From the IMG/VR virus record IMGVR_UViG_3300036821_000136, positions 32,001 to 96,000 of that record: DNA of 64,000 nucleotides. One strand, 5' to 3'. Shown one piece after another: positions 6,731 through 29,392 of the stretch. A program made the translations under genes and the position numbers. Each line of letters begins with the position of its first letter. Positions within the stretch are counted from its first letter, which is position 1. Under the pieces are notes generated by a model, which ran no database searches, was not told the origin of the DNA, and was given only the letters and a program-made list of their open reading frames with translations. The stretch comes from a virus (taxonomy: Duplodnaviria; Caudoviricetes).

Positions 6731-8305
6731 CGACGACGACCGCGGCGAGCTGCTGGGCCCGGCGCTGCTGGCGCTCGCCGAGGTGATGCTGGCGCGGGCC
6801 CGGGCCGCCAACCTGGCCGCGATGGCCCGGGCGGAGGGGCTGATCACCGAGATGGACGTGCGCTGCGCGCAGCTGGCGTGCGAGCGGTGCTACGGCGGCC
6901 CGGCGCTGGCCGGGACCGGGACGGGCGACTGCAGCTGCCCGGCGCGGTGCCCGGTGCGGCACTGCCTGGCCGGCGACGGGGTGCTCGACGGCGGCGCGCC
7001 GTGACCGCCGCGCTGCTGCGGGTCCGGCCCGTCGGCGGCCGCGCCGCCACCTTCGTCGCCATCCACGACGACGAGACCGAGCTGGTGCTGGCCCGCATCG
7101 GCCAGGCGTTCGCCGGCCTGACCGGCTGCGACCCGGGCGCCGTCGACGCCCGCGTGATGCCGTGGGAGACGCTGCCCGGCCCCGGCATCAGGGCGATCGC
7201 GGCGGCGCAGCTGGCCGCCGGCGGGCCCGGCACGATCGTGTTCCTCGGCACCGCCGCCGGCGGGCAGTGGGCGACCTGGCACGTGCCCGCGCCGGCGCCG
7301 TTCCCGGCGCCGCGGTGAGCGGCAAGCCGCCGCCGGCGCACTGCGGGTCGTGCCTGGCCCCGGTCTACTGGGCGTTCCCCGAGCGCGGCGCGCCGCCCGG
7401 GCGGGGCGGGAGGCCGGCGGGCAAGATGCCGATCGACGCCGGGTCGGCGGGCACCGGCAACGCCGAGGTGTGGCAGGACGGGGCGGTGCTGCGCTACCGG
7501 ATGCTGCGCGACGGCGAGCAGCCCGGCGAGGGCCGGTTCCGGGGCATGCCGCACTGGGTGACCTGCGAGCACGCCGGCCAGTGGCGGAACCGGTGACCGG
7601 CCCGCCGGCGGGGCCGCGATCGGGCGGTGACCGCGTGCAGGTCAAGATAGCGGGCGAGCACGGCGGCTCGTACACGGTCACCGGCCGCCTGCTGACCGAC
7701 GGCAACACCATCGACGGCACCACGTGGTACGTGATGGAGACCGACCACGGCGCCCGGCTCATCGTGGCCGCCGGCGAGCTGCAGGACCCGGCCGGTGACT
7801 GACCCGGTGCCGCCGTCGGGGCCGATCGCGACCGCGCTCTGGCAGGCCGCGCCGATGCTCGAGGAGGTCACCGGCGGCGCCCTGGCCGAGCACACCGAGG
7901 CGGGAACGCGGGCGATCGAGGCGCGCGTCGCGCAGGGTCATCTGTGCGTGCTCTGCGGGCAGCCGGCCGGCGCCGCGCTGGTGGTCCGGCCGGGCCCGGA
8001 GTCGCCGGCGTCGTTCGCGCCGCGGTGGGCGGACCTGTGCGTGCCGCACTTCGCGCTGCTGGTCGCCGAGAGCCCCTGGGAGCCTGGCCGTGGCTGACCC
8101 GGTGGCGGGCTGGCCGTTCACCGACCCGGTCACCGGCGAGGAGTGCGCGCTGGTGGTCCGCAGCGGCCGGGCGTACGTGAACTGCGGCGGGTGCGGCGGA
8201 CTGGCCGACGTGGTGCCGGTGCTCGACGCGTTCTACTGCGCGCGGTGCGGCTGGTCGGGGCGGGTGTCGGGCGCCTGGGTCGCGGGGCTGCTGGCCGGGC
8301 TGTAG
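6723..8305 (+). CDS. Run of six small coupled genes, several with Zn-finger motifs (6723-7004, 7001-7318, 7315-7596, 7593-7802, 7795-8097, 8090-8305)
   Basis: 4-8 nt overlaps between genes; CxxC pairs. Confidence 0.55.
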
Positions 8306-8374
8306 GACCGACGTCACACCGGGGACGGCGCGGCTGACCGCCCGGCCTGGTATTATGTATATATGAGCAACACG
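8303..8374 (+). promoter_or_regulatory. Repeated promoter copy 1 (extended -10, leaderless ATG) with upstream box
   Basis: TGGTATTATGTATATATGAGCAACACG at 8348-8374; box TAGGA-CCGACG-TCACA at 8303-8318. Confidence 0.75.
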
Positions 8375-8548
8375 ACAAGCAAGACCGTGAGCACCCGCCA
8401 GTACCAGGCATCGCACGGCCGCAGCCCGCGCGGCTACGGCCAGTGGATGTTCGAGCTGCGCGGGGCCGGCGAGATCGTCACCCGCACCGGCACCTACACC
8501 GACGCCAGGAAGGCGCTGCCCGCCGGCAACTGGGTGGTGCTCCCGTAA
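8363..8548 (+). CDS. Small hypothetical protein (leaderless, MSNT start)
   Basis: ATG lies 6 nt after the TATTAT hexamer; coupled to the next gene (TAATG). Confidence 0.65.
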   Translation: MSNTTSKTVSTRQYQASHGRSPRGYGQWMFELRGAGEIVTRTGTYTDARKALPAGNWVVLP

Positions 8549-9051
8549 TGACCAGCCGCGCCGCCTACGCCGGGATCACCTACGTGGTCCCGTGCTCGGC
8601 CCGCAAGGCCGCCGCGCCCGCCCCGGCCCGCGACCTGTACACCGGCGCGATGTTCACCCACAGCCTGGCCGCCGCCGAGGCGCTGGCCCGCTGGGACCGC
8701 CAGCAGGGCCGCGAGGCCCGGATCCTGGTCCTGAGCGCCCGGCACGGCCTGGTCACCCTCGACCAGGTGATCGCCCCCTACGACCGCAAGATCGGCGACC
8801 CCGGGTCGGTCACCCCCGCCCGGCTGGCCGGCCAGGCATGGCAGCTGGGCCTCCGCGCCGACGGCGACGGCTGGGCCCGCTCGCCCGAGGTCTACTCGCT
8901 GTGCCCCGCCGCCTATTACGACGTCCTGTCGAGCGCCCTGCAGCGGCTCGGCGTCTACCCCCAGGACTGCTACGAGGGCACCGCCGGGATCGGCGATCAG
9001 CGTCACGTCAACACCGTCTGCGGCTGGGACACCACCCCGGCCGCCGCCTGA
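8548..9051 (+). CDS. DUF6884-like (YaaA-related) protein
   Basis: VVPCSARK...ARDLYTG..F...VLSARHGLV...IAPYD. Confidence 0.7.
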   Translation: MTSRAAYAGITYVVPCSARKAAAPAPARDLYTGAMFTHSLAAAEALARWDRQQGREARILVLSARHGLVTLDQVIAPYDRKIGDPGSVTPARLAGQAWQLGLRADGDGWARSPEVYSLCPAAYYDVLSSALQRLGVYPQDCYEGTAGIGDQRHVNTVCGWDTTPAAA

Positions 9052-9062
9052 AGGAGAGACAA

Positions 9063-9679
9063 ATGACCACCACCAACGTCGTGCCCGTATTCGGGCCGCC
9101 CGAGACCGTCACCGTCGCCGAGCTGCGCGCCGGCGACTTCCTGATCGCCATCCCGGCGCAGGAAGGCGTCCGCGGCGTCACCGTCAATTCCGGCATCGCC
9201 GAGCTGAGCGACGACTGGAACACGTGGCGCCAGAGCACCGGCTACCGGCGGCCGAAGGTGCCCGTCCGGTCCGTCGTCATCATCGTCCGCGACCCGAAGG
9301 CGAAGCCGGTCAACCGGCCGGCCGGCTTCCTGGCCGAGGTCCGCCGCCCGCAGGCGGCGGTGTGACCGCCGCGCCCCGGCGGGCGCTGACCCCCGCCGAC
9401 GTCACCCGCCGCTACCGGGCGTTCCGCTCGGGCCGGCCGGAGGCGTGGGCGGCCGCGTCCCGCGACGGGCTGTGGACCTACGAGCGGCTGGAGATCAGCG
9501 GCACGCCGTGGGAGGCCCGGCACGTCCCGACCGGGATCGCCGGGCCCTGGTACGGCACGCTGACCGCCGCCCGCGCGGCGACCGCCGACGGCACGGCGCT
9601 GGCCGCCGTCGAGCGGATCGCGGTGCACGAGCGCGGCGGGCACGCGGCCGGGCGCGACCCCCGGTGCCTGCGCTGCTAG
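9063..9679 (+). CDS. Two hypothetical genes (9063-9365, 9362-9679)
   Basis: CTGAAGGAGAG RBS; GTGA coupling. Confidence 0.55.
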
Positions 9680-9867
9680 CCGCGCTCGCTGTCCGGGATC
9701 ACCTCGGCCAGGTTCCCCTCCCAGCGTTTGCCGTTGATCCAGATGATGCAGTGGCGGTGCCGGGCGGCCGCCGGCGTGCCGCTGATCTCGCCAAGGTGCA
9801 CCTCCATTGCCGGGCGCTGCTCGGTCTCCCGGGCTGCCTGGTCATCGCTCATCGCTGCCTCCTGTAG

Positions 9868-9961
9868 TAGGACCGACGCCACATTCGAATACGTACGGAA
9901 TCGCGCCCCGACCAGCCCAGACGCGGCCGGGGCGTGGTACTATGTATATATGAGCAACACG
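9868..9961 (+). promoter_or_regulatory. Repeated promoter copy 2 with upstream box
   Basis: TGGTACTATGTATATATGAGCAACACG at 9935-9961; box TAGGA-CCGACG-CCACA at 9868-9883. Confidence 0.75.
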
Positions 9962-10183
9962 GACAGGCACCCGATGACCAGGAACCAGGCCCGCACGATC
10001 GCCAGGGCGATCGACGCCGGCGCCGACGCCAGCCGCTACCACGTCGGCGGCGTGCTGCCGGACGAGGTACTCGACCAGATCGTCGACATATCCATGGCCC
10101 TCGGCTGCACCTGCCCGGCCTTCCAGCGCACCCACCCGCACCACAGCCCGGCCCGCGTCCGCCGCGGCGGCCGGCTCGTCTGA
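9950..10183 (+). CDS. Small hypothetical protein (leaderless, MSNT start)
   Basis: ATG lies within the repeated promoter motif. Confidence 0.6.
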   Translation: MSNTDRHPMTRNQARTIARAIDAGADASRYHVGGVLPDEVLDQIVDISMALGCTCPAFQRTHPHHSPARVRRGGRLV

Positions 10184-10216
10184 CCACCACCACCGCCACC
10201 TGAAGGAGAGACCACC

Positions 10217-10855
10217 ATGACCACCGCCACCAAGAGCCGCAGCCGCCGCAAGGCACCCACCCGCGCCAGCGTCGAGGCCGCCGCCAAGCGCAAGGCCGAG
10301 CTGTTCGACAAGCTGGAGGCCTGGGAAGACGAGACCGACCAGGACACCATCGACGCCGCGGTCGCCATGTTCGCCGCGATCGACGACGGCTACTCCGACC
10401 GCAACGCGATGCTGATCGCCATGCAGGACCCGGAGGCCACGAAGGTCGCCGGCTACCGCCAGTGGCAGGACGTCGGCCGCCAGGTCGGCAGCTACCCCGA
10501 GGGCCAGGGCGGCATCACCATCGTCCGGTTCGCCGGCAGCTACAAGTCCAAGGACGCCGACGGCGCCGGTCCCTCGGCCGACTTCGGCGCCAAGCCCGCC
10601 GAGCACGACGCGGCCGCCGACGACGCCAAGGCCAAGGAGCGCAACCGGTTCGCGCTGACCACCGTGCACGACATCCGGTGGACCACCGAACTGCGCTGCG
10701 CGACCTGCGACGCCAAGATCCACCGCACCGGCTACGACAAGGCGACGAAGCGGCACACCTGGACGCACAGCGACCAGCTCAACGTCGGCCACCCCGTCGA
10801 GCTGCCCCGCCGCCCCGTCGCCGAGGACGCCGAGCAGGCCGGCACCGCCGAGTAG
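10217..10855 (+). CDS. ArdC-like ssDNA-binding (DUF1738-type) anti-restriction domain protein
   Basis: YSDRNAMLIAMQDPEATKVAGYRQWQDVGRQV matches the ArdC N-terminal signature. Confidence 0.75.
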   Translation: MTTATKSRSRRKAPTRASVEAAAKRKAELFDKLEAWEDETDQDTIDAAVAMFAAIDDGYSDRNAMLIAMQDPEATKVAGYRQWQDVGRQVGSYPEGQGGITIVRFAGSYKSKDADGAGPSADFGAKPAEHDAAADDAKAKERNRFALTTVHDIRWTTELRCATCDAKIHRTGYDKATKRHTWTHSDQLNVGHPVELPRRPVAEDAEQAGTAE

Positions 10856-10916
10856 ACACACACCCGACCACCGGGCGCCCGCCAAGGGCGCCCGGACCTA
10901 TCCCTGAAGGAGAGAC

Positions 10917-11650
10917 ATGACCACCACCACCCCGACCGAGGCCCGCAAGGCCGACGCCGAGCGGTACGCCGCCCGGCTCGGCCTGGACGCCGAGGCGCTG
11001 CACGCCGCCGCGATCGCCGTCTGGAGCAACCTCAACCCGCAGGCGACCGGTTTCGACGTCGCGCTGTCGGCCGCCGCCGCCGCGCTGCTCGCCGTCACCC
11101 GGGCAGCCGGCAGCCGGCAGGCCGCCGAGACCGCGCGGCTCGTCACCGCCGCCCAGCCCGGCGACCGGGAGCTGATCACCGCCGTGCTGACCGAGACCGC
11201 CGACGCCCGGGACCGGGAATCGCGCGGGCACCGCTGGACCGGCGAGCGTTTCGCCGGCGTCCGCGCCCGGCTGCGCGGCGAGGCCCGCCAGATGCGCGAC
11301 CTGGCCGGCCGGCTGGCGGCGTCGTCATGACCGCCCTCGGCGACACCCGCCGGCCCGCCGCCCGCGCGGCGGTGCTGGCGGTCCTGATCGAGCAGACCAC
11401 CGACTACCCCGGCGGCCACGAGCCGCTGACCATGAGCCGCGACCTGCTCGCCTACCGGACCGGGCTGCCCCGCACCGTCGCCGCGGCGGCCGCCGACGCG
11501 CTCGCCAAGACCGGCGCCGTGACCAGGCTGCGCGAGCGCGGGCGGGTCGTCTACTACGTGCCGCGGGCCGGGCTGGACACCGTCCCGATCGAGACCGGGC
11601 CCGTCGCCCGCGCCTACATCGACGCGGTGACCGCCGAGGGGGACCGGTGA
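10917..11650 (+). CDS. Hypothetical (10917-11330) and winged-helix-like protein (11327-11650)
   Basis: RBS and ATGA coupling; SRDLLAYRTGLPRTVAAAAADALAKTG..RVVYYV is wHTH-like. Confidence 0.5.
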
Positions 11651-12291
11651 CGCACCAGCTGGCCCTGCGGCTGTCGCCGCTGGTCGCCTTCTACCAGGTC
11701 GACATGGCCGAGGCCGAGGACCTGCTGATCAGGTGGCGGCACCCGCTGCACCTGCCCACCGGCGAGTGCCCGTCGTGCGGCAAGCCGCACCCCGGCGGCC
11801 GGCCGTACGAGCGGCCGTTCGGGCGGCTGCCGTTCGTGATGGAGGACCGCGGCCGGGTCGCGGCGTGCGTGGTGCTCGCCTCGACGATCAACGCCAGCGT
11901 GTGCAAGGCGCGCGGCTGGCACCGCTACAACACCGTCGACCTGGCGCGGATCGCCCGGTCCCCCGACCGCCGCGACGAGAAGTGCCTGCGGGCGGTGCTG
12001 CGGATCACGCGGGAGTACCTGGCGCCGCTGTGGCTGGACACCTCGGCGAAGTGGGCGGCCCGGTCGGCGGAGCTGTGCGGCCGCCCGCAGCTCGCCGCGC
12101 TCGCCACCCAGTCGCTGCCCGGCACGCCGGGGTCCATGTACCGGTTCGACGGGTTCGAGCACATCCGCACGACCAGGGGCGCGCACGGCGGCGGCCACCA
12201 GAAGGCGAGCGCGGCCAACGCGATCGACGACGGCGCGCGCGGGCTGTGGGTCTACCCGTACCCCCGGCCGCTGCTGGCGGGCGCCGCGTAG
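11647..12291 (+). CDS. Mom-like GNAT-fold DNA modification protein (putative)
   Basis: RWRHPL, VDLARIAR and SLPGTPGSMYRFDGFEHI resemble the ELxRL...GxxYxxxNF pattern of Mom/XF1762 proteins. Confidence 0.5.
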   Translation: MTHQLALRLSPLVAFYQVDMAEAEDLLIRWRHPLHLPTGECPSCGKPHPGGRPYERPFGRLPFVMEDRGRVAACVVLASTINASVCKARGWHRYNTVDLARIARSPDRRDEKCLRAVLRITREYLAPLWLDTSAKWAARSAELCGRPQLAALATQSLPGTPGSMYRFDGFEHIRTTRGAHGGGHQKASAANAIDDGARGLWVYPYPRPLLAGAA

Positions 12292-12388
12292 CCCGGCGGG
12301 CCACGGCGCCGCCGCATGTATGTGCCGTGCCCGGGAACGCCGCCGCCCCCGGCGCGGTGCGCGGCGGGGGCGGGTGACGGGCGGGCGG

Positions 12389-13047
12389 TCAGCCTTCCGG
12401 CCAGCCCCACCGGGGGCGGGTCCACCGCACCATCGAGCCGACGCGGGCGTAGACCTCCGGGATGTAGAAGAACCGGTAGCGGCCGCCCGGGCAGGCGAGC
12501 GTGTGGGCCCGCTGCCCGGTGCCGTCCTGGACGTGGTCGCGGACCAGCGTCAGGCCGTGGTCGTGGCCGCGGACCGGGCAGGCCGGGAACGCCGGCGCGG
12601 TCGTGGTCGTCATCGGTCAGCCCTCCTGCCCGGCGGCGGGCGCCGCCGGGGTCTCGTTGTGCTCGGCGCAGGCCGGGCGGGGCCCGAGGCCCCGCCAGTA
12701 GCCCGCGCAGGTGCAGGGGCCGCTCATCAGGTTCGCCATCAGTGGCTCACCATCGCGCCGCGCATGCCCACGCGGGGCGAGCGCCGCCCGGGGCTGACGT
12801 AGGCGGGGGCGGACCACACGCGGCGGCCGTCGCGGACGAACCAGCGGCCGCGGTGGTAGGTCTTGCGGATCATGGTCTCTCTCCTTCAGATGTGCAGGTC
12901 GGCGCCGGTGGCGGGGTGGTACCGGGGCGGGTCGCTCAGGTCGCCCTCGACGACGGCGAAGCCGCCGCCGACGCGGGCCCACCACACGCGGTCGGTGTGG
13001 TCGTAGGTCCAGGGACCGTAGGTGTCGGCGTCGCTTTCGTGTTGCAT
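12389..13047 (-). CDS. Leftward operon of four tiny genes (12886-13047, 12739-12873, 12617-12739, 12389-12613)
   Basis: First ATG lies in a minus-strand promoter motif; CTGAAGGAGAG RBS at 12878-12888; coupled stops and starts. Confidence 0.55.
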
Positions 13048-13185
13048 ATATATAAGGTACACCAACGCCGCCGTGACTTCGCCCGTTCCGGCAGGCCAGG
13101 GCACGTTTTCCGGTGTGATGACCGTCCTACGCCCAGGGGCGTCACGGGCGGCTCCACGTGGTATTATGTATATATGAGCAACACG
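13038..13185. promoter_or_regulatory. Divergent pair of repeated promoters (copies 3 and 4) sharing one central box
   Basis: Minus strand TACCTT-ATATAT-ATG (ATG 13047); plus strand TATTAT-GTATAT-ATG (ATG 13174); box TGTGA-TGACCG-TCCTA at 13114-13129. Confidence 0.75.
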
Positions 13186-15478
13186 ACAGCCACCGCCACC
13201 GCCACCGCCGGCCGGAGCTACACGACCGGCATGGTGCACGACGCCCGGCCGACCGGCCCCGAGGGCCAGCTGACCCAGCGGTGCGGCATGGGCCGCCGCC
13301 AGCTCGCCTACCTCGCCCCCACCGACGCCCCGGTCACCTGCAAGCGGTGCCTGGGCCTCGGCGCCTGAAGGAGACCACGATGACCGACACCATCACCCGC
13401 CTGGCCGGCGAGGACCGCACCGCGTTCCTGGCCGCCGCCGCGGCCGCCGCCGACGAGTTCCTTGACGAGTCCGCCGACGCCGGCGTGACCGGCTGGCCGA
13501 CCTTCACCCACGCGGTCGTCGCGCTCGGCGAGTACATCACCGCCGTCGCCGCCGTGGCCGACTGGGGCCGGCAGCCGGTCCCGCACCGCGAGCCGGCCAT
13601 GACCTCGGCGGCCGCCGTCACCGGCACCGACCGGGACGCCCTGGCCGCCGCCGTCGCCGCCGCCGCCACCGAGTACGTCGAGGAATCTGAGGCCGAGGGC
13701 GAGGACGTGTGGCCCAGCTTCACCGCCGCCCTGCAGGACTTCGGCCTGTACCTGACCCACGGCGCCGGCGACGCCGACTGGGGCTACCTGCCAACCGCCA
13801 CCGCCTGACCACCGCCAAACCGGCACTTGAAGGAGAGAGACCATGACCGCACGACACGACTGGCAGCCCGGCGATTTCGCCACCTTCCCCGACAGCCGCC
13901 GCGGCCCCGACCGCACCGGCATCTACACCGGCGAGACCCGCGTCTCGACCACCCGCCTCACCGCCCTCGGCGAGGAAGTGACCCGCAAGGTGCCCGTCAC
14001 CTACGCGATGATCCTCGTCACGCCGGCCGGCGGCCTGGACCACCCCGGCCGCGGCGCCGGCTCGGTCAGCGTCGACGTGCGCAAGCTGCGCCCGGCGACC
14101 CCCGCCGAAATCACCGCCAGCGACGTCCGGCAGGGCTGGGCGACGTGCCAGGCGCGGGCCGCGGCCGCCGCGGCGTGGTGGGAGGCCGCCACCCCGGCGG
14201 TCACCTACCTGATCGAAGCGGGCTACGCCGACGGCCACGGCCAGATGGGCATGGCCATCGTGAACCTGCTGCTCGAGGCCGACCGCTACCCCGGCCGGTA
14301 CGCCTACACGCTCGACCGCCGGCACTGGGTGGTCAAGTACATGCCCGCCCGGTGGAACGCCGGCGCGACCCACCCCGCCGACCCGGCGCTGCGCGCCACG
14401 GCGGGCGGTGCGCGGTGACCGCCGACCTGACCGCCGCCGCGCTCGCCGCCGCCGCCGAGCTCGACGACGAGGCCGAGGACGCGGCCAAGGCCAAGCCCAA
14501 GCCGCGCCACCCGTGCGGGTTCTGCGCGACCGGCGACCACAACCTGTGCAAGGAGACGATCCGCAACGGGTCGCAGGCCAAGGTGGCTGTGTGGGAGTGC
14601 CCGTGCTGGCAGGCCGGGCACACCCTCGGCCGCCAGCCGCCGCTCAACCGCACCCCGCCGCGGATGGCCGCCTCGGCGATGCCGCCCCGCCCGGCCGCCG
14701 TCGTCACCGTCGACCTGCCCGGCACGTCCCCGGCCGGCCCGCCCGTGCGCCGGTCCTCGAGGCGGGCCGCGCCCTCGCCGTTCCCGGCCGGCGTGGTCAG
14801 CCCGTACGGCTTCCGCAAGGCCCTGCTCGACGCGGGCCTGGAGCCGGCGTCGTTCCGGCCGCAGACCGTCTACACGTGGGTCAAGCAGGCCGCCGCCGGC
14901 GGCACGTTCCCGGTCCGCTGGTACGCCGGCGGCGCCGAGACCGACGCGGGCGCCGACGGCGCCAAGCCCGGCGTCCCGGTCGAGCAGGCCCTCGCCTGGC
15001 ACCGGGCGGGCGGCGCCAAGTGAACGCCGCCGAGATCACCACCCCGTGCCTGGTCTGCGCGGTGCAGGCCGCGCTCAAGGACTCCGCGTTCTGGGCGGGC
15101 CGCGGCCTGAGCTGGCCAGTCGCCGAGGTCGCCGGCCACACCGCCCACAAGGCGTGCGCGTCCGAGGTCGAGCACCTGATCGCCGTCATCGGCGGCCTGG
15201 CCGTCGACGCCGCCGGGGTGCCCCGCTGGACCGCCAGCGGCAACGTGCCCCCCGACGACACCGTCGCGCTGATCATCGCCTTCGGCCTGGCCGGCGGCAT
15301 CGACGCGGTGGCGGCGTCCGCCGCCTACGCCGAGCAGACCGCCGAGGCGATCGCCGCCTACCGCCGCGAGCGCGAGCTGCAGGGCTACAGCGACGAGGAA
15401 CTGGCGCAGATGGCCGCCGCGTTCGGCCCGGGCGCCACCGTCGTCGACGCGCTCACCGGCCAGCGGATCGAGCTGTGA
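13174..15478 (+). CDS. Run of hypothetical genes (13174-13368, 13380-13808, 13843-14418, 14415-15023, 15020-15478)
   Basis: Leaderless first gene, TGAAGGAG RBSs and GTGA overlaps. Confidence 0.6.
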
Positions 15479-15927: not shown

Positions 15928-16021
15928 CGAGTGACCGGCGGCCGTAGCCCGCCGGGCTACGGGCAGACGCAGGCGGCGGCACCCCCCCGGGGTCGGGGTG
16001 CCGCCGCCTGGTCGTGCCGGG

Positions 16022-16309: not shown

Positions 16310-16625
16310 GCGCGCAGTGTAACACCGGCGTGACGGTGCGGAGGCGGGTCGCGGGCCGGCCCCCGGGGGCACCGTGCACTGGGCTCCCTGATAGGCGTGG
16401 GGGCCGGCCCGGCCGGGCGGCCCGGAGGTTGCGGCCGGGTGCGCAGGCATCCTGCGGAAGCGGCCGGGGGCACCGGACGCCCGGACACGGCCAGGATAGC
16501 GGGCGGGGACGGCGGCGGCCGGCCAGGCCCGGGCGTTGGGCTGGCCGGCCGCCAGTGGCGTCGCCCTGCGTAGTAGTACACAGGCGGTGCCGGCAAGATT
16601 ACGCTGCGCGACCCGCCGCGTCCAG

Positions 16626-16708
16626 TGTGCCCGAGGGCACAGCACCGGACACGTTTTCGGGAGCCGGCACCTGACCTGGGCTGGTATTGTATATATATAA
16701 GCAACACG
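16626..16708 (+). promoter_or_regulatory. Repeated promoter copy 5 with palindromic box
   Basis: TGTGC-CCGAGG-GCACA at 16626-16641; TGGTATTGTATATATATAAGCAACACG at 16682-16708. Confidence 0.75.
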
Positions 16709-16729: not shown

Positions 16730-17476
16730 ATGACGAACCAGTACCCCGGCCAGTGCGGGACCTGCGGCCAGCGGGTCGAGGCCGGCGAGGGCACGGTCAC
16801 GAAGGTCCGCGGCCGGTGGACCCCGTTCCACGCGGCCGGCCAGTGCCCGGAGAACACCGAGGCGGTCGAGCAGGCCGAGGCCGTCCTGGCCAGCGCCGAG
16901 GTCGGCGACATGCTGGAGCGCCAGTCGCGTGACCGGCACGCCCGGGCCGCCGCCGACCAGCCGCGCCCCAACCGGTACGGCGGGACCTGCGGCGCCTGCG
17001 GCGCCTGGGTCGACGAGGGCGAGGGCACGGCCGTCAAGGTGGCCGGCAGCTGGACCGCCCGCCACATCGGCGAGTGCCCGGTGCCGGCGCCGGTCGGCAT
17101 CTACCGCGACCCCGAGGGCACGATCTGGCTGGTCAAGGAGTCCCGCGGCCAGAAGGACGTGCCGGTCGAGCAGCGCCGCCGGTACGCCAAGAAGATGATC
17201 GAGTCCGCGGCCGCCCGGTTCACCGAGGGCGGCGACTCGGTGCGCTACGACTGGGAGATCGTGCGCGGCGCGGTCTACCGGCTGACCGAGGACATGCGCG
17301 TCCCGCTGGACGACGAGCAGGTGACCGCGCTGATGATCGCCACCGGCAAGTGCATCGTCTGCGACCACGCGATGTGGGCCGAGAAGACCCTGCGGCGGGC
17401 CAAGGAGACCGGCGTGATGGTCGGGCCGGTCTGCGTCAAGAGCTTCGCGCCGGCCCGGTTCCGCCAGGACGCCTGA
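16730..17476 (+). CDS. Zn-ribbon repeat protein with C-terminal DUF6011-like motif
   Basis: Two N.Y.G.C..CG..V..GEG repeats; C-terminal CIVC...VGPVC. Confidence 0.65.
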   Translation: MTNQYPGQCGTCGQRVEAGEGTVTKVRGRWTPFHAAGQCPENTEAVEQAEAVLASAEVGDMLERQSRDRHARAAADQPRPNRYGGTCGACGAWVDEGEGTAVKVAGSWTARHIGECPVPAPVGIYRDPEGTIWLVKESRGQKDVPVEQRRRYAKKMIESAAARFTEGGDSVRYDWEIVRGAVYRLTEDMRVPLDDEQVTALMIATGKCIVCDHAMWAEKTLRRAKETGVMVGPVCVKSFAPARFRQDA

Positions 17477-17528: not shown

Positions 17529-17612
17529 TGTGCCGGACGGCACACCGCCCGGACGCTTGTTCGAGCGCCGCCGCCTGACCTGCGGGGGTATTCTGTATAT
17601 ATAAGCAATACG
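17529..17612 (+). promoter_or_regulatory. Repeated promoter copy 6 with palindromic box
   Basis: TGTGC-CGGACG-GCACA at 17529-17544; GGGTATTCTGTATATATAAGCAATACG at 17586-17612; preceded by a terminator-like hairpin at ~17490-17527. Confidence 0.7.
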
Positions 17613-17626: not shown

Positions 17627-17989
17627 ATGTACATCGACCACCGCGCCGAGGCCAGCCGGCACCACAACGAGGCCAGCAAGAACTACCGCCAGGGCAAGCG
17701 CGACGCCGAGCGGGCCGCCCGCTACTACGGCCAGGCCGCCGAGCACCGGACGATGGCCCGCTGGCTGACCGGCCGCCCCGAGCTGTGGGAGGGCGAGTTC
17801 ACCCCGGCCGGCAGCGAGGCCGCCGCCCGCACGTGGACGCGGCTGGGCGACCTGTACCTGCGGTCCTCGTTCTCGTCCACCGAGCGCGGCCGGTTCTACC
17901 GCGGCCTGCAGCGCCGGTCCGAGGCGCTGGCCGCCCGGGCCGAGGCGCGGCTGGCCGAGTGGGAAGCCGAGCGGGCGGGGGCGCAGTGA
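17627..17989 (+). CDS. Hypothetical helical protein
   Basis: GGAG RBS; coupled to the ligase gene. Confidence 0.6.
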   Translation: MYIDHRAEASRHHNEASKNYRQGKRDAERAARYYGQAAEHRTMARWLTGRPELWEGEFTPAGSEAAARTWTRLGDLYLRSSFSSTERGRFYRGLQRRSEALAARAEARLAEWEAERAGAQ

Positions 17990-18999
17990 TGGGCGGGCTG
18001 CGCGTGCCGGACCCGATGAAGGGCACCGACCTCAAGGCGATGATCGCCTGGGGCCAGCCCGGGCAGTTCGACGCGATCGGCGCCTGGCTGGTCCCCGAGT
18101 GGGCCGCCGAGCCCAAGTACGACGGCTGCCGCGCCTTCCTGCAGATCCTGGCGGGCCGGTCCCGGTTCGGCGAGAACCGGTCGGCGTCGTTCCCCGACCT
18201 GGCCGCCGTGCACGTCGACGAGCCGGTGACCGTCGCCGGCGTCGAGTTCCCGGGCCTGGCCGGGACGGTCCTCGACGGCGAGCTGGTCGCGGCCGCGCCC
18301 GGCCGCCGGGCGCCGATCGGGATCACCGCCGGCTGGTTCGGCTCCGGCGTCACCCGCGCCCGGATGTACCGGATGCAGTTCGGCGCCCCGACCTTCTACG
18401 TGTTCGACCTGCCCCACCTGGCCGGCACCGACCTCACCGGCCTGACCTACGACCAGCGCCGCGCCGCGCTCGAGGAGGTCGTCGCGATCCTGGCTGACCG
18501 GTGCCCGGACGCGCAGATCGTGCTGGTCCCGCAGCTCCCGGCGACCGCCGGGGCGATCCAGGCCGAGATCAACCGGGGCGGCGAGGGCGTCATGCTCAAG
18601 CGCCGCGACGGCCGGTACGAGCCCGCCGCCCGCCCCGGGCAGCGGTCGAGGGCGTGGGCGAAGGTCAAGGCGATGGGCACCGTCGACGTGGTGCTGACCG
18701 GCGGCTGGACCCCCGGCGACAACACCCGCCGGGGCACCGTCGGGTCGGTGGAGATCGCGGTCGTCGGCGACGACGGGGCGTGGATCCCGGTCGGGCACTG
18801 CGCGGTCAAGCCGGAACTGCTCGGCGCCTACACCCCCGATGAGATGCCCGGCCTGGCCGGCACCGTCTGGGAGGTCATGGCGGCGGGCGTGACCACCGGC
18901 CGCAAGCTCCGCCACCCGCACATGATCCGGGTCCGCGACGACAAGCGGCCCGAGTGGTGCCCGGCCGGCCAGCTCGACGCGCTGCCCGCCGCCGCCTGA
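17989..18999 (+). CDS. ATP-dependent DNA ligase (minimal)
   Basis: Motifs EPKYDGCR, LDGELV, FYVFDL, EGVMLK and WAKVK, plus OB-fold RHP...RVRDDK. Confidence 0.9.
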   Translation: MGGLRVPDPMKGTDLKAMIAWGQPGQFDAIGAWLVPEWAAEPKYDGCRAFLQILAGRSRFGENRSASFPDLAAVHVDEPVTVAGVEFPGLAGTVLDGELVAAAPGRRAPIGITAGWFGSGVTRARMYRMQFGAPTFYVFDLPHLAGTDLTGLTYDQRRAALEEVVAILADRCPDAQIVLVPQLPATAGAIQAEINRGGEGVMLKRRDGRYEPAARPGQRSRAWAKVKAMGTVDVVLTGGWTPGDNTRRGTVGSVEIAVVGDDGAWIPVGHCAVKPELLGAYTPDEMPGLAGTVWEVMAAGVTTGRKLRHPHMIRVRDDKRPEWCPAGQLDALPAAA

Positions 19000-19620: not shown

Positions 19621-19736
19621 CCCCGCCAAACCTAGGAAGGACCTGCCCGGAACATATTTCCCTGATATATATCGCGCCGCCCGCGCCGCCCCTGACCTGG
19701 GGCGGCGCGGGCGGTCTTCCCGCTAGGCTGGCCGGC

Positions 19737-20129: not shown

Positions 20130-20134
20130 CCCGG

Positions 20135-22178: not shown

Positions 22179-23341
22179 GGCTGCCGCCCCACGTAGGACA
22201 TCCAGGCCACGGCAACGTTGTTGAACATGGTCAGCGGCGCCCGCCCGAACGGCAGGTCCCGGTCCCAGCGCAGCGACGACCACCGGTCGGTCGCGGCGTA
22301 GACCACGGTGCGGAGCTCCTGCAGGGCGAGCGGCTCGCCCAGGCAGCGGTGCGGCCCGGACGCGAACGCCGGGTGCTGCTGGCCCAGGCCGGGGCGGCGC
22401 GGGTCGAGCAGGCCGGGGTCGGGGAACCTGGCCGGGTCGCGGCCGGCTGACCACAGCGACCCGGTGACCATCTGGCCGGCCGGGATCTCCACGTCGCCGA
22501 ACGTGACGGGCCGGGTGGTCACCGCCCCGATCGTCGGGAACGGCGGAGCGAGCCGCAGGCACTCGGCGATCGCGCCGTCGCGCAGCCCGGGGTCGGCGCG
22601 CAGCTCGTCCCAGCCGCCCCACTCGGCCAGCAGCAGCAGGGTGCTGGCGATCGCCGCGTGCGTCGTGTGGATCCCGGCGGCGACCAGCCCCCAGAGATAC
22701 CCGATGATGTCCTCGTCGGACAGGTCGGCCCCGTCGACCTGGTAGCCGGCCGCCTGGGCGGCGATCAGCTCGTCGACGAGGCCGCCGGCCGGGCGGCGGC
22801 GGCGCTCGGCGAGCAGGTCGGCGAAGAACGCCGCCTTGTCGGTCTGCACGATGGTCTGGTGGACCGCGGCCGACCCGGCCGCGAACTCGGCCAGCCACGC
22901 GCCGAACTGCTTGTTCGCCGCCAGGTCGAGACCCATGATCTGGCAGATCACCGCCCCGGGCAGCGGCGCCGCCAGCTCGGCGACGACCTCGAACGGGCCG
23001 CCGTGCCGCTCGATGTCATCCATGAGCTGGTCGGCCAGGGCGCGGATCCCGGGCGCCAGGGCGGCCAGCGCGGTCCGGCTGAACGGGTCGCGGACCAGGC
23101 GCCGCAGGTCGTGGTGCCGCGGCCCGTCGGCGACCCACATCACGTGGTCGTTGGGCTCCCTCGAGCGGGGGTCGGCGAACCCCTGGGAGAAGCACACGGC
23201 GTCCCGGGCGAGCCGGTCGACGTCGTCGTAGCTGAACACCTGCCAGCTGCGGCGGTCCGGGTCGTAGAACGGCCTGGTGCCGGCGTCGAGGGGCAGCCCT
23301 GGCGGGCCGAGCAGTCGCTGATCGGGCAGTACGGGGGTCAT
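22175..23341 (-). CDS. Cytochrome P450
   Basis: DGPRHHDLRR, I-helix AAGIHTT, ECLR (ExxR), RDP..FPDP, heme motif FASGPHRCLG. Confidence 0.95.
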   Translation of the reverse strand: MTPVLPDQRLLGPPGLPLDAGTRPFYDPDRRSWQVFSYDDVDRLARDAVCFSQGFADPRSREPNDHVMWVADGPRHHDLRRLVRDPFSRTALAALAPGIRALADQLMDDIERHGGPFEVVAELAAPLPGAVICQIMGLDLAANKQFGAWLAEFAAGSAAVHQTIVQTDKAAFFADLLAERRRRPAGGLVDELIAAQAAGYQVDGADLSDEDIIGYLWGLVAAGIHTTHAAIASTLLLLAEWGGWDELRADPGLRDGAIAECLRLAPPFPTIGAVTTRPVTFGDVEIPAGQMVTGSLWSAGRDPARFPDPGLLDPRRPGLGQQHPAFASGPHRCLGEPLALQELRTVVYAATDRWSSLRWDRDLPFGRAPLTMFNNVAVAWMSYVGRQP

Positions 23342-23423
23342 GGCGTGTGCGCCGCCTTCCGGTAGGAGTCTGGGCAGCAGCACTCTAACAGGCGGTAACC
23401 GGATCGTTCCGCAGCGCAACGAC

Positions 23424-23444
23424 GCGATTCGCGATTCGCGATTC
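23424..23444. repeat. (GCGATTC)x3 tandem repeat upstream of the P450
   Basis: Visible directly; lies between a hairpin (23458-23486) and a TGtTAGAGT -10-like element on the minus strand. Confidence 0.7.
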
Positions 23445-24788
23445 ACCAAACGCTAAAGGGCCCGGGCGGCGCTGCCGCCGGGGCCCTGCCGATAGCCAAT
23501 CCTCCTTTCCCGGGCGATGCTAACGCGGCGTCGCCGGGGTCGTCCGGCTCTTCGCGGCCGACGGCGCGGCGCAGCGGGTGGTGCCGGCCGTACAGCCGGG
23601 TGACCCGCAGGTCGCCGTCGTCGCCGGCGATCTTGCGCGCCTTGCGGCGGGCGGCCAGCCGGGTCGAGGCGTGCACGCCGAACGTCATCACCCGCGGCGC
23701 GCTGCCCAGCAGGATCAGCGTGCCGTCACGGTCGATCGCCACGACCGGCGCGGGGCCGGGCCAGGTGACGCGCACCTGCCAGTTCCTCGTCCGGGGCATC
23801 ACACGTCCTCGGGATGGGCACCGGCGGCGAGGCCCTGCAGGTACTTCTCGCCCTCCAGGTCGCGCAGGATGCCGAGCGCCGCCGCCGAGCTGGCGGCCAG
23901 CTCGGGGCAGAGCGCGATCAGCGCGGCCAGGGCGTCGTCGGCGGTCTCGATGTACATCAGTTGACCGCCCGGGCGATCTGCTCGTCGGTCACCCAGGTCC
24001 GGCACCGGCACTGGCGCCGGCACATGGCGAACACGTAGGCGACCGGGGCCCGGCAGCGCAGGCACAGCATCACGGCGTCCCTCCTGACCTGCCGCGTCAC
24101 CGGCAGGGTTCTCGTTTTGCGACCCGGTTTGAGGCGCCCGGGCCGACTTGTAATTTTTGTAACTGTGTTTCAGATATTGGCCGGCGGGGCGCCGTGCCGG
24201 GCGATCTGCGCGGCGACCATCTTGCGGCTGGCGGTCATCGCGTCCTGCAGCCGGGCCTCGGCCCGGGCGCCGGAGAACTGGCTGGTGACGCGGGTCGACC
24301 GGTCGACGCCGCCGGCGGCGGTGAGCAGGTACTGGACGACGTAGAACTCGGGCAGGGTGTGGCCCTCGCGGACGTGCCGGTAGACGCGCAGGCGGAAGAT
24401 CCGGCCGTCGTCGGCGTAGCAGGTCAGCGTCTCGACGTCGGTGGTGCGGCGGCGGGGGATCCGGTGGTTGGCCATGTCAGGCGCCGTCGTCGCAGGACCG
24501 GCAGAGCCGGTCGTAGTCGCTCATCCGCGCGTCGTCGTCGCAGACCGGGCGGCCGCAGCCGACGCACAGGCCGTCGGCCGGGCCGCTGCACAGGTGGCAC
24601 GACTCCGCGGCGTGGGCCAGGACGGCGGCCAGGTTGGCGACCGGGAAGGTGCCGTCGGCGGTGCGGACGGCGACCAGGTAGCCGCTGGCGTCCTTGCCGT
24701 AGGCGAGCACCGGGGGCCCGTTCAGCCGGCCGCCGGTGGCGGCGATCCAGGTGACTGCCCACGCGGTGTCGGTGGTGTCGGTGGCCAT
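23443..24788 (-). CDS. Leftward small genes (24477-24788, 24170-24475, 23957-24073 Cys-rich, 23799-23957, 23443-23802)
   Basis: RBSs and coupled overlaps downstream of the minus-strand promoter copy. Confidence 0.55.
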
Positions 24789-24809
24789 GGGTCTCTCTCC
24801 TTCAGTTAC

Positions 24810-24899
24810 CGTGTTGCGTATATATACATGGTACCATACGTGGGGCGTCCCGGCGCCATCGTCCCTGGCCGGGGGTACCGTCTATATATGGGCAACACG
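24810..24899. promoter_or_regulatory. Back-to-back repeated promoters (copies 7 and 8)
   Basis: Minus TGGTACCATGTATATATACGCAACACG (24836-24810); plus GGGTACCGTCTATATATGGGCAACACG (24873-24899). Confidence 0.7.
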
Positions 24900-24927
24900 C
24901 CCGCCTGACCGCCTGAAGGAGAGACCG

Positions 24928-25416
24928 ATGACCCACCACCCGCACGAGCCCGCCGCCAACCAGCTCGGCCCCGACCTGGAAGCCACCTCGACGACGCCGG
25001 CCTGGGTCGGCGCCCCCCGCCCGGCCCGCGGCGACTACACCGTCGGCTGGCGCATCGAGGTCGCCGCGGTCAGCCCGGAGCACGCCGCCAGCGCCGCCCT
25101 GGCCGCCCAGCGCGGCCGGGGATCGCGCGCCACCGTGTTCACCGTCTCCGACGGCTCCAGCACGTGGCGCGTCGACCTGACCGAGGGCACCACCGAGCTG
25201 CTGGCGGGCGGGCCGCCGGAGCCCGGCGGGCTACTGCACGTGTTCACGCTGCGGATCCCGTCGGAGGCGGTGACCGACAGCCCGGCGGGGTGGGGGACGG
25301 CGCTGATCGGCCAGATCCGCCGGCTGATGGCCGACGCCGGGATCGGCGACTACGAGCTGTGGCTGTCGACCGTCGGGCGGGGCACCGTCGAGGACGTCGC
25401 TCCCGAGGACGTGTGA
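24928..25416 (+). CDS. Hypothetical protein
   Basis: CTGAAGGAGAG RBS. Confidence 0.6.
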   Translation: MTHHPHEPAANQLGPDLEATSTTPAWVGAPRPARGDYTVGWRIEVAAVSPEHAASAALAAQRGRGSRATVFTVSDGSSTWRVDLTEGTTELLAGGPPEPGGLLHVFTLRIPSEAVTDSPAGWGTALIGQIRRLMADAGIGDYELWLSTVGRGTVEDVAPEDV

Positions 25417-25485
25417 CCGGCGTCCCGCCACCGGGCTACCCCCGCCCGCCCGCGCCGGGGGTACCATGTATATATAAGCAACACG
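25412..25485 (+). promoter_or_regulatory. Repeated promoter copy 9
   Basis: GGGTACCATGTATATATAAGCAACACG at 25459-25485; box TGTGA-CCGGCG-TCCCG at 25412-25427. Confidence 0.7.
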
Positions 25486-25508
25486 GCCACTGAAGGAGAG
25501 ACACCACC

Positions 25509-28113
25509 ATGATCGACACCGCCGCCCTCCCGCTTGAGGACCGGTACGCCCGCTACGCCGCCAACGAGGCCGCCCTCCGCGCCGTCGACGACGTCGTGGT
25601 CCTGCTCGGCGACAAGACCCCCGGCAGGCTGTACACCATCGTCAAGACCAACCCGACCACGCTGATCCTCGCGCCCGCCGACGGCGGCCTGCAGGTCAAG
25701 GCGCACCGGTCGCTGGTCGAGGACGCGCCCGCCGGATCGGCCGCCAAGGTCGCCGCCGCCGCCGCGACCGTCCTGCCGCACCAGCCGCTCGGCGCGCTGG
25801 TCCGCCTCAAGGCCACCGCCCCGCCCGCCGGCGGGATCAACCCCGGCGAGGTCTGCGTCGTGATCATCGACAAGGGTGACCGCGTCCACGTCGCCAAGAT
25901 CGGCGGCGTGCAGACCGCCCGCGGCGACGCCTACGCCCGCCCGCCCCGCGCGCTGGTCGAGGCCGTCAGCCCCGGCGACGTGCTGGTGCCCGCCGAGGTC
26001 AAGCCGGTCGCCGGCGCCCGCCCGTCACGCGGCCGGAGGTCATGATGCAGTACCGGTTCACGTGCGCCCAGCACAACGTGGTGCTGGGCGGCTGCCCCGA
26101 GTTCTACCCCGCCGCCGAGGACGCGGCCGGCGGGGTCGCCGAGTGGGTCATCGACCTGTCCGACATGTCGTGCAGCGCCGACGACGCCTCCGACAACGGC
26201 AGCGGCTGCTCCGCCACCTGGCAGATCACCGCCGCCGGGGTCAGCCTCGCCGCGTTCACCCCCGCCGAGACGGCCGGGCTGTCCGACGCGCTCGCCGTCG
26301 CCGAGAACGCCGACGAGCACCTGACCCGCGACCAGCTCGCCGCGGCCGCCAAGCTCGACGCGGCGTTCGCGGCGGCCCCCGGGCCGCCCGCCGACCGCTA
26401 CCCGGCGCCCGACCCCGCCGGCACCGACTGGGACGCCTACCCGCCGCTGAGCGACGAGACCGCCTGCCTGGTCATGCAGGAGATCCTGGTCGACACCGAG
26501 TTCCTGTGGCTGACGGCGGTCAACCCGCCCAGCGGCGAGCGCGCCGAGGTCACCATCGTCGACGCGGTCACCACGTTCGCGGGCAACTGCTGGGACGACC
26601 AGCACGACGGCGGCGCCCACCGGCAGAACCTGATCGACGCCAACCGGCTGCTGGGCTGGCTGGACCGCCCCGACCTGCGCGACGACTACAACGACGTGCA
26701 CAGCCTGGTCGGCGACGACGTGCCCGAGCCCGAGCGCTGGGCGAGCCGGCCATGAGGGCGGGCGTGTCGAGCAGCGGCCGCTGGTGGGTCAGCATGGGCC
26801 CCGTCGGCTGGCTGATCTACGCGGTCTGCTGGCTGGCCGGGGCGATACTGATCATCGCCGCCCGGCTGGTCTGGGCGCTGGCGCTGGGGGTCGCCTGGCT
26901 CGCCCGCGCCGGCTGGCGCGCCGCGACCACGAGAGGACAAGACCGATGACCCGCGCCTACGACACGATGCCGGGCGTCCCGGCCGCCGGCCACATCGCCG
27001 GCGGCGCCTGGCACCCCGGCCCCTCCCACCACTGCACCAAGTGCGAGCCGCCGCCGCGCCCGGGCACCGCCGACGCGGCCCGCTGGTACCTGCAGCGCGA
27101 CCTGTCCTACGGCCTGGCCGCCGACGCCACGATCGCCGACGCCCGCCGGTACAACGGCCGCTACGTCTACACCCCCGACGGCTGCGCGTGGGTGCTCGCC
27201 GCCCGCGCCACCGGGCGGCTGGTCTGGTCGTTCGGCCGGGCGACCCGCGCCGAGCAGCACCTGGCCCACGACCGGCGCACGCCGACGGCGACCCGCGTGG
27301 ACCCCGACGCGGTCCACGCCGGCGACCGGATCGCCTGGGGCACCGCGCGGGGCGGGCGCCTGGCCGGCTCCGGTACGGTCGAGTTCGCCACCGCCGAGGC
27401 GGTGCACGTGATCAGCGGCGCCGGCTACCACTACCCGATCGCCTGGACCAGGGTCACCGGCCACTGGCCGGCGGCCGCCTGAAGGAGAGAGACATGACCG
27501 ACACCGCCGCGGCGATGCGCCGCCCCAGGATGCGCCGCGCCCTGCTCGCGCACCTGTTCGACAACCACGGGGTCATGCTGACCCGCGCCGACTCCGCCCG
27601 CGAGTCGCTGGGCCAGCTCGCCGAGATGGACCCGTGCGGCGCCGCGCCGCCGCTGGGCGACGCCGACCTCGGCTACGACGCCGACGGCTGGCGGGTCCGC
27701 CGGTCGGGCGGGACGGACTTCCGGGTCACCGACTGCTGCGCCAAGGACGCCACCACCGCCGACGGCGACGACGAGGGCACCATCGTGTGCCGCCGCTGCA
27801 AGCAGCCGGCCGGCGAGTCGCTCGCGCTGCCCCCGATGCTGCCCTACCTGGCGCCGGACGGTCACGTGCTGGTCCGGGCCGACACCGCGAAGGAGAGAGA
27901 CCGGTGAGCGGCTTCTACGCGATCCGGCAGGCCCGCACGCGGGTGATCGGGTCGCGGCTGATGACCCGCGAGCAGGCCGACCGGGAGGTCGCGGTGTGGG
28001 CGGCCGAGATCGGCCCGGCCCGCGTGCTGCCCGCCACCCCCGACCTGGCGCACGCGGTGCGCTACTACGACCAGGCCATCCTGGTGCCCGCGCTGAAGGG
28101 CGAGCCCTGGTGA
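25509..28113 (+). CDS. Run of hypothetical genes (25509-26045, 26042-26755 acidic, 26752-26949 membrane, 26946-27482, 27494-27907, 27904-28113)
   Basis: ATGA/GTGA coupling and RBSs. Confidence 0.6.
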
Positions 28114-28373
28114 CCGATGCCAGCGGCAGGCGCCGCCCGAAGTTCCGCAGCGCGGGGTCACCCGACCGGCTGACCGGCACGGTGACCCGCTGGGACCCCG
28201 GCGCCAGCTACGGGATGATCACCGGCGACGACGGCGGCAGCTACTTCCTGTCCGCCGCCGACCTGCCGCGCGGCCGCGAGAGCCTGGCCGTGGGGACCGC
28301 CGTCACCTTCACCAGCGGCGCCCCGGCACCCGGCAAGCGGTACCCGCGCGCCCGCCAGGCCCGGCCCGCATGA
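28110..28373 (+). CDS. Cold-shock domain protein
   Basis: TGTVTRWD...YGMITGDDGGSYFLSAADL...LAVGTAVTF. Confidence 0.75.
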   Translation: MTDASGRRRPKFRSAGSPDRLTGTVTRWDPGASYGMITGDDGGSYFLSAADLPRGRESLAVGTAVTFTSGAPAPGKRYPRARQARPA

Positions 28374-28617
28374 TCACCGGCTACCAGGCCGGGACGGCCC
28401 GGCCGGAGCCGTGGCTGCCCGCCGGCCGGCACGCGGTCGCGGTGGTGCGGCTGGCGCACGGCGTCGAGCGGCCCGAGCCGGCCGCGGTGTGCGGCACGTG
28501 GATCGAGCACGCCAAGCCGGGCGGGCCGCTGGTGATCTCCTGCCCGGCCTGCGCGCGGGTCCTGGGCGCGCTACGGGCTACTCAGTAGCAGGCGAGCGGC
28601 CGTAGCCCGGCGGGCCA

Positions 28618-28691
28618 CGGGACCGGGGTCACGGCCGCCCGGGGCGCCACCGGGCGGCCCCATGCCGTATTATGGATATATGAGGAACACG
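28618..28691 (+). promoter_or_regulatory. Repeated promoter copy 10 (degenerate)
   Basis: CCGTATTATGGATATATGAGGAACACG at 28665-28691; box CGGGA-CCGGGG-TCACG at 28618-28633. Confidence 0.65.
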
Positions 28692-29308
28692 ACAGACACC
28701 ATGACCGCCCGGCACTGCTCGGGCTGCGCCCAGGTCGACCCCATCGACGACGGCGACGGCTACACCGACTGCTGCAACGAGTGGATCTGCGACGGCAACG
28801 GCGCCGACCGGTGGACCGTCGGGACCCTCACGTTCGACGAGGCCGGCCGCGAGGTCCGCACCGTCACCGGCGAGCTGCTCGCCTGCTGCGGCGGCCAGGC
28901 CGACAAGCTGGCCGCCGCCCAGGCCCCCGGCCGCATCGCGCTGTGCCGCGCGCTCTGACACCACCACCTGAAGGAGAGACCGACATGACGACCCCCGACA
29001 CCAGCCGGACCCACCGGTTCCCGCCGACCGGCTGCGTCAACCAATGGGCCGCCGACCACGACCACGCCGACTGCTGGGCCGCCTTCCTGGCCTTCCACGA
29101 AGCGCCGGCCGGGCTGGGCATCGACGAGTTCTACCGCTGGCTGGAGACGACCCCGCACGCCGCCGACATCACCCCCGACGGCGATGGGTTCCTGGTGACC
29201 TGCCGCCGCGGCTGCGCGCTGGGCACCAGCGCGCGCCAGAGCGACCGGGCGGGCGCCGGCCGGCGGGTCCGGCAGCACCGGATCTGCACGACTCCGCTGA
29301 CCGCCTGA
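28680..29308 (+). CDS. Two small Cys-containing genes (28680-28958, 28985-29308)
   Basis: Leaderless MRNT start, then a CTGAAGGAGAG RBS. Confidence 0.55.
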
Positions 29309-29309
29309 G

Positions 29310-29392
29310 TGTGCCCGACGGCACACCGGCCGGGTACCGGCCAGGGCGAGTTCCGGCGCCCCGGCTGGTACTATGTATATATGAGCAACACG
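29310..29392 (+). promoter_or_regulatory. Repeated promoter copy 11 with palindromic box
   Basis: TGTGC-CCGACG-GCACA at 29310-29325; TGGTACTATGTATATATGAGCAACACG at 29366-29392. Confidence 0.75.

Follow-up and report, generated by a model that had tools for sequence, protein, structure and literature searches.

What is an AT-rich sequence, repeated almost unchanged in front of small genes, doing in a phage genome with a G + C content of 75%? The question is raised by a stretch of 64,000 bp (here called the window, to which coordinates refer unless the genome is named), which comprises bases 32001-96000 of the 108,246-bp IMG/VR record IMGVR_UViG_3300036821_000136; the record is estimated to be 97% complete. 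From the letters of this stretch, an earlier reading (the original prediction) had described eleven copies of a motif combining a promoter with a start codon. Based on the analysis presented here, the 27-mer is a family of promoters for the host RNA polymerase carrying its primary sigma factor, to which we assign a probability of about 0.75, and at five copies the start codon of a small gene would coincide with the transcription start.

Eleven copies of an AT-rich element

Using the AT-rich 27-mer consensus, 8 sites were found at 3 mismatches or fewer; the 19-mer core recovered all 11 sites of the original prediction, each at the position given there. Shuffled versions of the window yielded zero matches, i.e. 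11 real copies against 0 expected by chance. A scan of the whole genome, proposed earlier as a check, returned the 11 known copies and no additional good one. All 11 are intergenic, fall inside a 21-kb block and are oriented toward the next gene downstream, most of these genes being without a family match. Copies 3 and 4 and copies 7 and 8 are divergent pairs; in the latter the predicted +1 sites are separated by 67 nt. The copies, with predicted transcription starts as +1 and SD for Shine-Dalgarno sequence, are:

Copy 1, 8348-8374 (+): +1 at 8363, ATG, leaderless; 0 mismatches; heads the open reading frame (ORF) 8363-8548
Copy 2, 9935-9961 (+): +1 at 9950, ATG, leaderless; 0 mismatches
Copy 3, 13038-13062 (-): +1 at 13047, ATG; 2 nt shorter past the ATG
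Copy 4, 13159-13185 (+): +1 at 13174, ATG; 0 mismatches; divergent to copy 3
Copy 5, 16682-16708 (+): +1 at 16697, ATA; 33-nt leader, SD, gene 16730-17476
Copy 6, 17586-17612 (+): +1 at 17601, ATA; 26-nt leader; gene 17627-17989, then DNA ligase 17986-18999
Copy 7, 24810-24836 (-): +1 at 24821, ATA; 33-nt leader; gene 24788 to 24477
Copy 8, 24873-24899 (+): +1 at 24888, ATG; mini-ORF 24888-24908, SD-led gene 24928-25416
Copy 9, 25459-25485 (+): +1 at 25474, ATA; 35-nt leader; gene 25509-26045, gene run to 28588
Copy 10, 28665-28691 (+): +1 at 28680, ATG; the most diverged copy
Copy 11, 29366-29392 (+): +1 at 29381, ATG, in frame with the SD-led start at 29411; gene to 29923

Alignment of the 11 copies showed that T-12, A-11 and T-7 are invariant (11/11) and that positions -10 to -8 are free, which gives TANNNT. 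Directly 5' of this hexamer, G-13 is present in 11/11, G-14 in 9/11 and T-15 in 6/11 copies. The sequence TATATAT, from -5 to +2, is invariant in all copies; at +3, 7 copies have G and 4 have A. The arrangement described in the original prediction, a TAnnnT hexamer followed by 6 nt and then ATG or ATA, was true of all 11. A -35-type site was found nowhere in the promoter region.

In Streptomyces coelicolor, TANNNT is the -10 motif at 80% of transcription start sites, 21% of the mRNAs are leaderless with a preference for an AUG start, and 30-39 nt is the commonest size of 5' leaders (PMC4895711). The phage element resembles actinobacterial primary-sigma promoters in the free middle of TANNNT, the TG-type extension, the distance of about 6 nt to a purine at +1 and the 5' AUG (PMC4895711). 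According to the summary of Cortes 2013 in PMC4895711, a TANNNT -10 and leaderless mRNAs are also found in mycobacteria. Unlike actinobacterial host promoters, the phage copies share an invariant block from -5 to +12.

Recognition would take place via an extended -10 (T-15 G-14 G-13, followed by T-12 A-11 nnn T-7) with no -35 box, and the invariant TATATAT would form an easily melted start region within GC-rich DNA. Because 6 nt separate T-7 from motif position 16, transcription is predicted to begin at the adenine there, which is the first base of ATG or ATA. The eleven promoters would split the 21-kb block, whose accessory genes are mostly ORFans, into units that are transcribed separately. 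It is from the sequence that we infer the actual transcription start, the form of the polymerase and any regulator.

A search for AT-rich islands pointed to a single degenerate candidate beyond the window, 4 kb to its left (genome 27912-27932, minus strand). Here the motif-like TGGTATATATTTATGTAACACGG is followed by an extended SD; the site may be a twelfth, decayed member of the family, heading leftward early genes. The AT-rich islands at 19650 and 31753 are not members.

The presumed nature of the host follows from the record itself. Its G + C content, 75% overall, stays at 72-78% along the whole length. It encodes virion proteins (a Mu-type portal, large terminase, tape-measure protein, minor tail proteins and head protease), replication and recombination proteins (RecT with a YqaJ exonuclease, a DnaB-type helicase and DNA ligase), a tyrosine integrase, a GntR regulator and several small helix-turn-helix (HTH) or winged-helix proteins. 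Based on this gene set and G + C content, the record probably represents a tailed phage of a very GC-rich, probably actinobacterial host. Neither Rfam families nor tRNA genes were found in the genome, and a search of it for Lsr2 gave no match. At the boundary of early and virion genes (34269-43797) the GntR regulator, a DUF2637-like membrane protein, a TraG/TraD-type coupling-protein domain and the tyrosine integrase (203 amino acids) are encoded. Left of the window, genome 6475-10576 contains a gene for a queuine tRNA-ribosyltransferase (DpdA-like); the product of the adjoining gene has an N-terminus that, compared by eye, we take to resemble QueC. Together the two genes suggest 7-deazaguanine modification of the phage DNA.

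Predicted leaderless and leadered genes

An ATG is present at +1 in 7 copies, and the sequence 5' of it is the promoter itself, so that there is no SD. Five of these ATGs (8363, 9950, 13047 on the minus strand, 13174 and 28680) open ORFs of 53-92 amino acids. Gene calling was based on third-position G + C content (GC3), which in the five frames was 0.94-0.98 from codon 2 onward, compared to 0.46-0.73 in the other frames. Past their first four residues the five products show no mutual relation. An open frame with ATG at +1 to +3 would give a leaderless mRNA in each of the five cases:

8363-8548 (+): leaderless ORF, 61 amino acids, MSNT...; GC3 0.96 against 0.52 and 0.60 in the other frames
9950-10183 (+): leaderless ORF, 77 amino acids, MSNT...; GC3 0.96
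10217-10855: ArdC-N-like gene 3' of the 77-residue ORF; ArdcN E = 6.8e-7
12886-13047 (-): leaderless ORF, 53 amino acids, MQHE...; GC3 0.94
13174-13368 (+): leaderless ORF, 64 amino acids, MSNT...; GC3 0.98
28680-28958 (+): leaderless ORF, 92 amino acids, MRNT..., Cys-rich; GC3 0.98

The original prediction let all ATG copies start ORFs, and for two of the seven this had to be revised. At 24888 (copy 8, MGNT) the ATG is followed by TGA after six codons, and the main gene starts at 24928 behind an SD, with a leader of 40 nt. The ATG at 29381 (copy 11) is indeed in frame with the SD-led start at 29411, but in the relatives P0046 and P0047 the protein begins with the SD-led methionine, which leaves a leader of 30 nt; the structure predicted for the 29411-29923 protein was weak (pLDDT 60). 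For the ATA copies, downstream SD-led starts had been proposed, and in 4/4 the gene is indeed preceded by a leader of 26-35 nt with a strong SD at its 3' end. With ATA at +1 to +3 the transcript would have no start codon at its 5' end, and the leader with the strong SD CTGAAGGAG would serve the gene. Homologues of the gene behind copy 5 (16730-17476) begin at the identical MTNQYPG. Overall, leaders here measure 26-40 nt, matching the commonest size of actinomycete 5' untranslated regions.

CTGAAGGAG was also considered as a part of the cassette and rejected, being the general SD of early genes. An unusually long conserved ribosome-binding sequence, CTGAAGGAGAGAGAC, occurs at about 20 sites between genome position 22.6 kb and window position 33670 (for example at window 872, 5585, 10200, 10904, 19046, 24913, 25490 and 28968). 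It often contains the TGA of the upstream gene and precedes about 20 early and left-arm genes and no virion genes.

As to gene products, the original prediction had listed ArdC-like, DUF6884, ligase and Mom-like proteins. Only an ArdC N-terminal domain, DUF6884 and DNA ligase were recovered; for Mom there was no match in the proteins tested. Both the immediate-early timing and the anti-defence role proposed there for the units are putative. Most genes of the promoter region are ORFans that match neither Pfam nor PHROG. The 61-residue protein, encoded directly 5' of the DUF6884 gene, belongs to a real small-protein family, with one homologue of 82% identity (P0013) and another in an AT-rich phage (38% G + C, L075:8001-8174). 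Its pattern YQASHG..PRGYG.W.F marks a widespread small phage protein.

Related early regions were compared through protein records, including over-extended gene calls that translate motif DNA. Homologues of the 92-residue protein (97% identity), called from an upstream ATG, read MPYYGYMRNTT, the peptide obtained by translating motif copy 10. A further homologue, P0049, on an 88-kb relative contig, reads MRNTTAITARH and has no internal methionine, so the ATG of the motif is its only available start. In a homologue of 65% identity, WYYVYMSYTT stands 5' of the conserved domain and back-translates to TGGTAYTAYGTNTAYATG, the family consensus with +7 changed, and a homologue of the 61-residue protein begins MSKT. 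These motif-translating gene calls show that the promoter persists in related phages and that +7 to +9 drift between lineages. The promoter with leaderless start, as originally proposed, agrees with the variation among copies (TANNNT and the TGG extension), with the coding signal from codon 2 and with the sole start available in one relative; by this sequence logic, promoter and leaderless start are well supported.

When viral, genome and metagenome collections were scanned for the exact motif, only isolated chance matches turned up, in DNA that was AT-rich or unrelated. Among 185,579 species genomes, none was found to contain the full motif in repeated form, and nothing similar to it was found in cultured phages. 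Scanning with the upstream half gave one high-GC match, at L099:10521-10543 on an unrelated viral contig (IMGVR_UViG_3300009514_000068, 68% G + C). This contig carries TGGTACTATGTATATATA exactly, having -15 to +3 in common with the phage motif and a different sequence downstream. The -15 to +3 half may therefore be a general solution for a strong promoter, with +4 to +12 private to this lineage. Searches with the ligase, RecT, portal, DnaB, a 248-residue family and the 61-residue protein yielded either distant phages that lack the motif or a structural fragment of 14 kb, and nothing else.

One relative, 86-91% identical in nucleotide sequence across the virion genes, contains about 1.1 kb (L072:2125-3270) that did not align to this genome. 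This stretch lies at the junction of the portal and head-protease genes, which overlap in this genome. Its end, directly 5' of the next gene, is an AT-rich island that contains small inverted repeats.

Upstream boxes and the block from +3 to +12

Upstream of the motif, dyad boxes were scored that agree with TGTGA-N6-TCACA at 7 or more of its 10 specified positions. Eight boxes serve 9 of the 11 promoters, one being common to a divergent pair; about 0.5 were expected in those stretches (Poisson 6e-8). Their centres are at -52.5 to -54.5, at -63.5 to -64.5 or at -74.5, and the gaps between box and motif are 29, 29, 31, 31, 40, 40, 41, 51 and 51 nt, about one helical turn per step. The boxes (no strand assigned) are:

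8303-8318: dyad box, centre -52.5
9868-9883: dyad box, centre -74.5
13114-13129: dyad box common to divergent copies 3 (-74.5) and 4 (-52.5)
16626-16641: dyad box, perfect palindrome, centre -63.5
17529-17544: dyad box, perfect palindrome, centre -64.5
25412-25427: dyad box, centre -54.5
28618-28633: dyad box, centre -54.5
29310-29325: dyad box, perfect palindrome, centre -63.5

Only three boxes form perfect hairpins, which makes a protein site likelier than an RNA structure; a single clear terminator-like hairpin was seen, 5' of copy 6. Lying on one helical face in most units, the boxes would probably be bound by a dimeric regulator. The candidates encoded by the phage are weak, namely two winged-helix proteins that score 17-18 bits with HTH_Crp_2, below the cut-off of 27, and a host CRP is equally possible as the binder.

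Class I CRP/FNR-dependent promoters have a TGTGA-N6-TCACA 5-6-5 dyad at distances about one helical turn apart. The phage boxes share the dyad type and the helical phasing. They differ in that their centres (-52.5, -63.5 and -74.5) are offset from the classical positions and that the middle six bases are conserved as well, and no full CRP-family protein is encoded.

Conservation beyond +1, already claimed in the original prediction, extends to five invariant positions (A+7, A+8, A+10, C+11 and G+12). As these are also conserved in the ATA copies, where they are untranslated, selection at the protein level cannot explain them. GCAACACG has 9 occurrences in the genome, every one inside the motif. 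The +3 to +12 block showed no dyad symmetry, no stand-alone sites in the genome and no Rfam match. It may be an operator, an initial-transcribed or 5'-RNA element, or the outcome of homogenisation among copies by descent and recombination.

It is possible, if doubtful, that the same promoters carry in +3 to +12 (RAGCAACACG) an operator for a phage regulator, with the phased dyad boxes as second site; one protein or protein pair would then switch all units together, as in the regulon of the original prediction. This would account for the invariance of +7, +8, +10, +11 and +12 in ATA copies, for the confinement of GCAACACG to the motif and for the phasing of the boxes, in a genome that has small HTH and winged-helix proteins, an integrase and a GntR regulator. 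The missing dyad symmetry and stand-alone sites argue against an operator, as does the 13047(-) copy, where 2 nt are missing between the ATG and CAACACG and the latter is shifted accordingly. Moreover, relatives differ at +7 to +9, with MSYT or MSKT replacing MSNT, and no regulator could be assigned: the HTH_Crp_2 scores stay below the cut-off, three HTH candidates were without a match in PDB sequence searches, and the PHROG searches were empty too. More doubtful still is a two-site switch in which the core and the phased boxes turn at least 11 leaderless or short-leader units on and off together, a winged-helix or CRP-like dimer of phage or host at the box contacting either the polymerase or a protein at +3 to +12. 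If this were true, the choice of G or A at +3 would let evolution switch whichever cassette lands behind the promoter between leaderless and SD-led expression.

On a par with the operator, and likewise no better than tentative, is the explanation that the sameness past the -10 reflects common descent and recombination between copies, in a shuffling of ORFans like that around the promoter-early stem-loops (PeSLs) of T4-type phages, +3 to +12 having no separate function. Copies 5 and 6 are similar over about 95 nt, from the dyad box to the core, which points to a recent duplication. The richness in ORFans, the difference among relatives at +7 to +9 and the behaviour of PeSLs, repeated strong early promoters before ORFans that mediate modular shuffling (PMC2839356), fit this explanation as well. 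However, most flanks outside the 27-mer and box are unalignable and the conservation has sharp edges, which argues for selection on the core.

The predicted reader and known systems

Profile searches of the genome for sigma70_r2 and WhiB gave no match. A search for a T7-like RNA polymerase (PF00940) was also without a match, but its control was silent too, and none of the large phage proteins examined was polymerase-like. With the -10 rule matched and no phage sigma factor, WhiB or polymerase found, the host holoenzyme is the most economical reader.

Several points weigh against promoters read by the host enzyme. The +1 sites are predicted from sequence, and the actinobacterial host is presumed. 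Known polymerase contacts do not account for the conservation from +3 to +12. The T7-like polymerase search, its control being silent, does not exclude that enzyme, and several large phage proteins are without annotation. Finally, an open frame accompanies ATG in 5/6 scored copies, and for ATA the frame is closed or shifted in 4/5, an association that is only suggestive (Fisher p = 0.08).

A further alternative is a promoter of the middle class, dependent on a phage factor, either because a phage protein disables recognition of the -35 or because an unrecognised phage sigma factor or polymerase reads it. Such an arrangement exists in Thermus phage P23-45, which shifts the host polymerase toward extended -10 promoters, and it would be in line with the missing -35 box, the activator-like positions of the upstream boxes and the many phage proteins without annotation. 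We consider it unlikely, as the element fits the host-type TANNNT rule exactly and a sigma-like or polymerase-like gene was not detected (with the T7-like control silent, as above). Two pairs of copies are in inverted orientation, which could suit a site for replication, partition or packaging or a miniature mobile element, but such a non-promoter role is highly improbable given the fixed register of every copy before a start codon or SD leader, an orientation that always follows the gene, variation that obeys the -10 rule and the lack of an Rfam family match.

A site resembling the extended -10 of the family without the downstream core, TGGTATGGT, is present at 790-798, in the divergent gap between genes for an HTH_36 protein (79-477, -) and a small HTH-like protein (1008-1346). 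The divergent region may be a regulatory switch region.

Promoters read by the host enzyme have their closest described counterpart, by analogy, in the PeSL cassettes. In phages RB49 and phi1, repeated strong host-type early promoters with stem-loops precede ORFans in plastic genome regions and drive modular shuffling (Arbiol et al. 2010, PMC2839356). The likeness lies in the many near-identical host-type promoters, often with a dyad or stem-loop, before small ORFan genes. In contrast to the PeSLs, the element of this phage consists solely of an extended -10 and lacks both a -35 box and an AT-rich UP region; in five copies the start codon coincides with the predicted +1, and true hairpins are confined to three boxes.

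Other repeated phage signals are less similar. The operators and stoperators of Cluster A mycobacteriophages (L5 gp71) too are short, asymmetric, repeated many times and orientation-locked to transcription. Stoperators, however, are found away from promoters and stop elongation, whereas the conserved block here never occurs outside the promoter. The SAS/ESAS (start-associated and extended start-associated sequences) of Cluster K mycobacteriophages are a translation-side element with no -10 hexamer. They share with this phage a conserved sequence just before many starts, here the extended SD CTGAAGGAGAGAGAC with its about 20 copies; the 27-mer differs from them in having a -10 hexamer. In halovirus HF2, a virus of a GC-rich host, intergenic AT-rich repeats of 29 to 58 bp acted as promoters in reporter assays (PMC8707807). 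Both viruses have AT-rich intergenic promoter repeats and a GC-rich host; HF2, however, uses archaeal transcription machinery, and its repeats have no sequence relation to the 27-mer.

A promoter that includes a start codon is a known kind of phage signal and no new principle. Particular to this phage is the combination of the host -10 rule, a start codon built into an invariant core, the toggle at +3 and the phased boxes. The element offers a compact promoter of 27 nt with a precise predicted start for organisms with a very GC-rich genome. Its matched natural versions, ATG for leaderless and ATA for leadered expression, form a test bed for leaderless translation and could also show the contribution of the first twelve transcribed bases. 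For actinophages, it suggests an organisation of accessory regions resembling that of the PeSL-rich plastic regions in T4-type phages.

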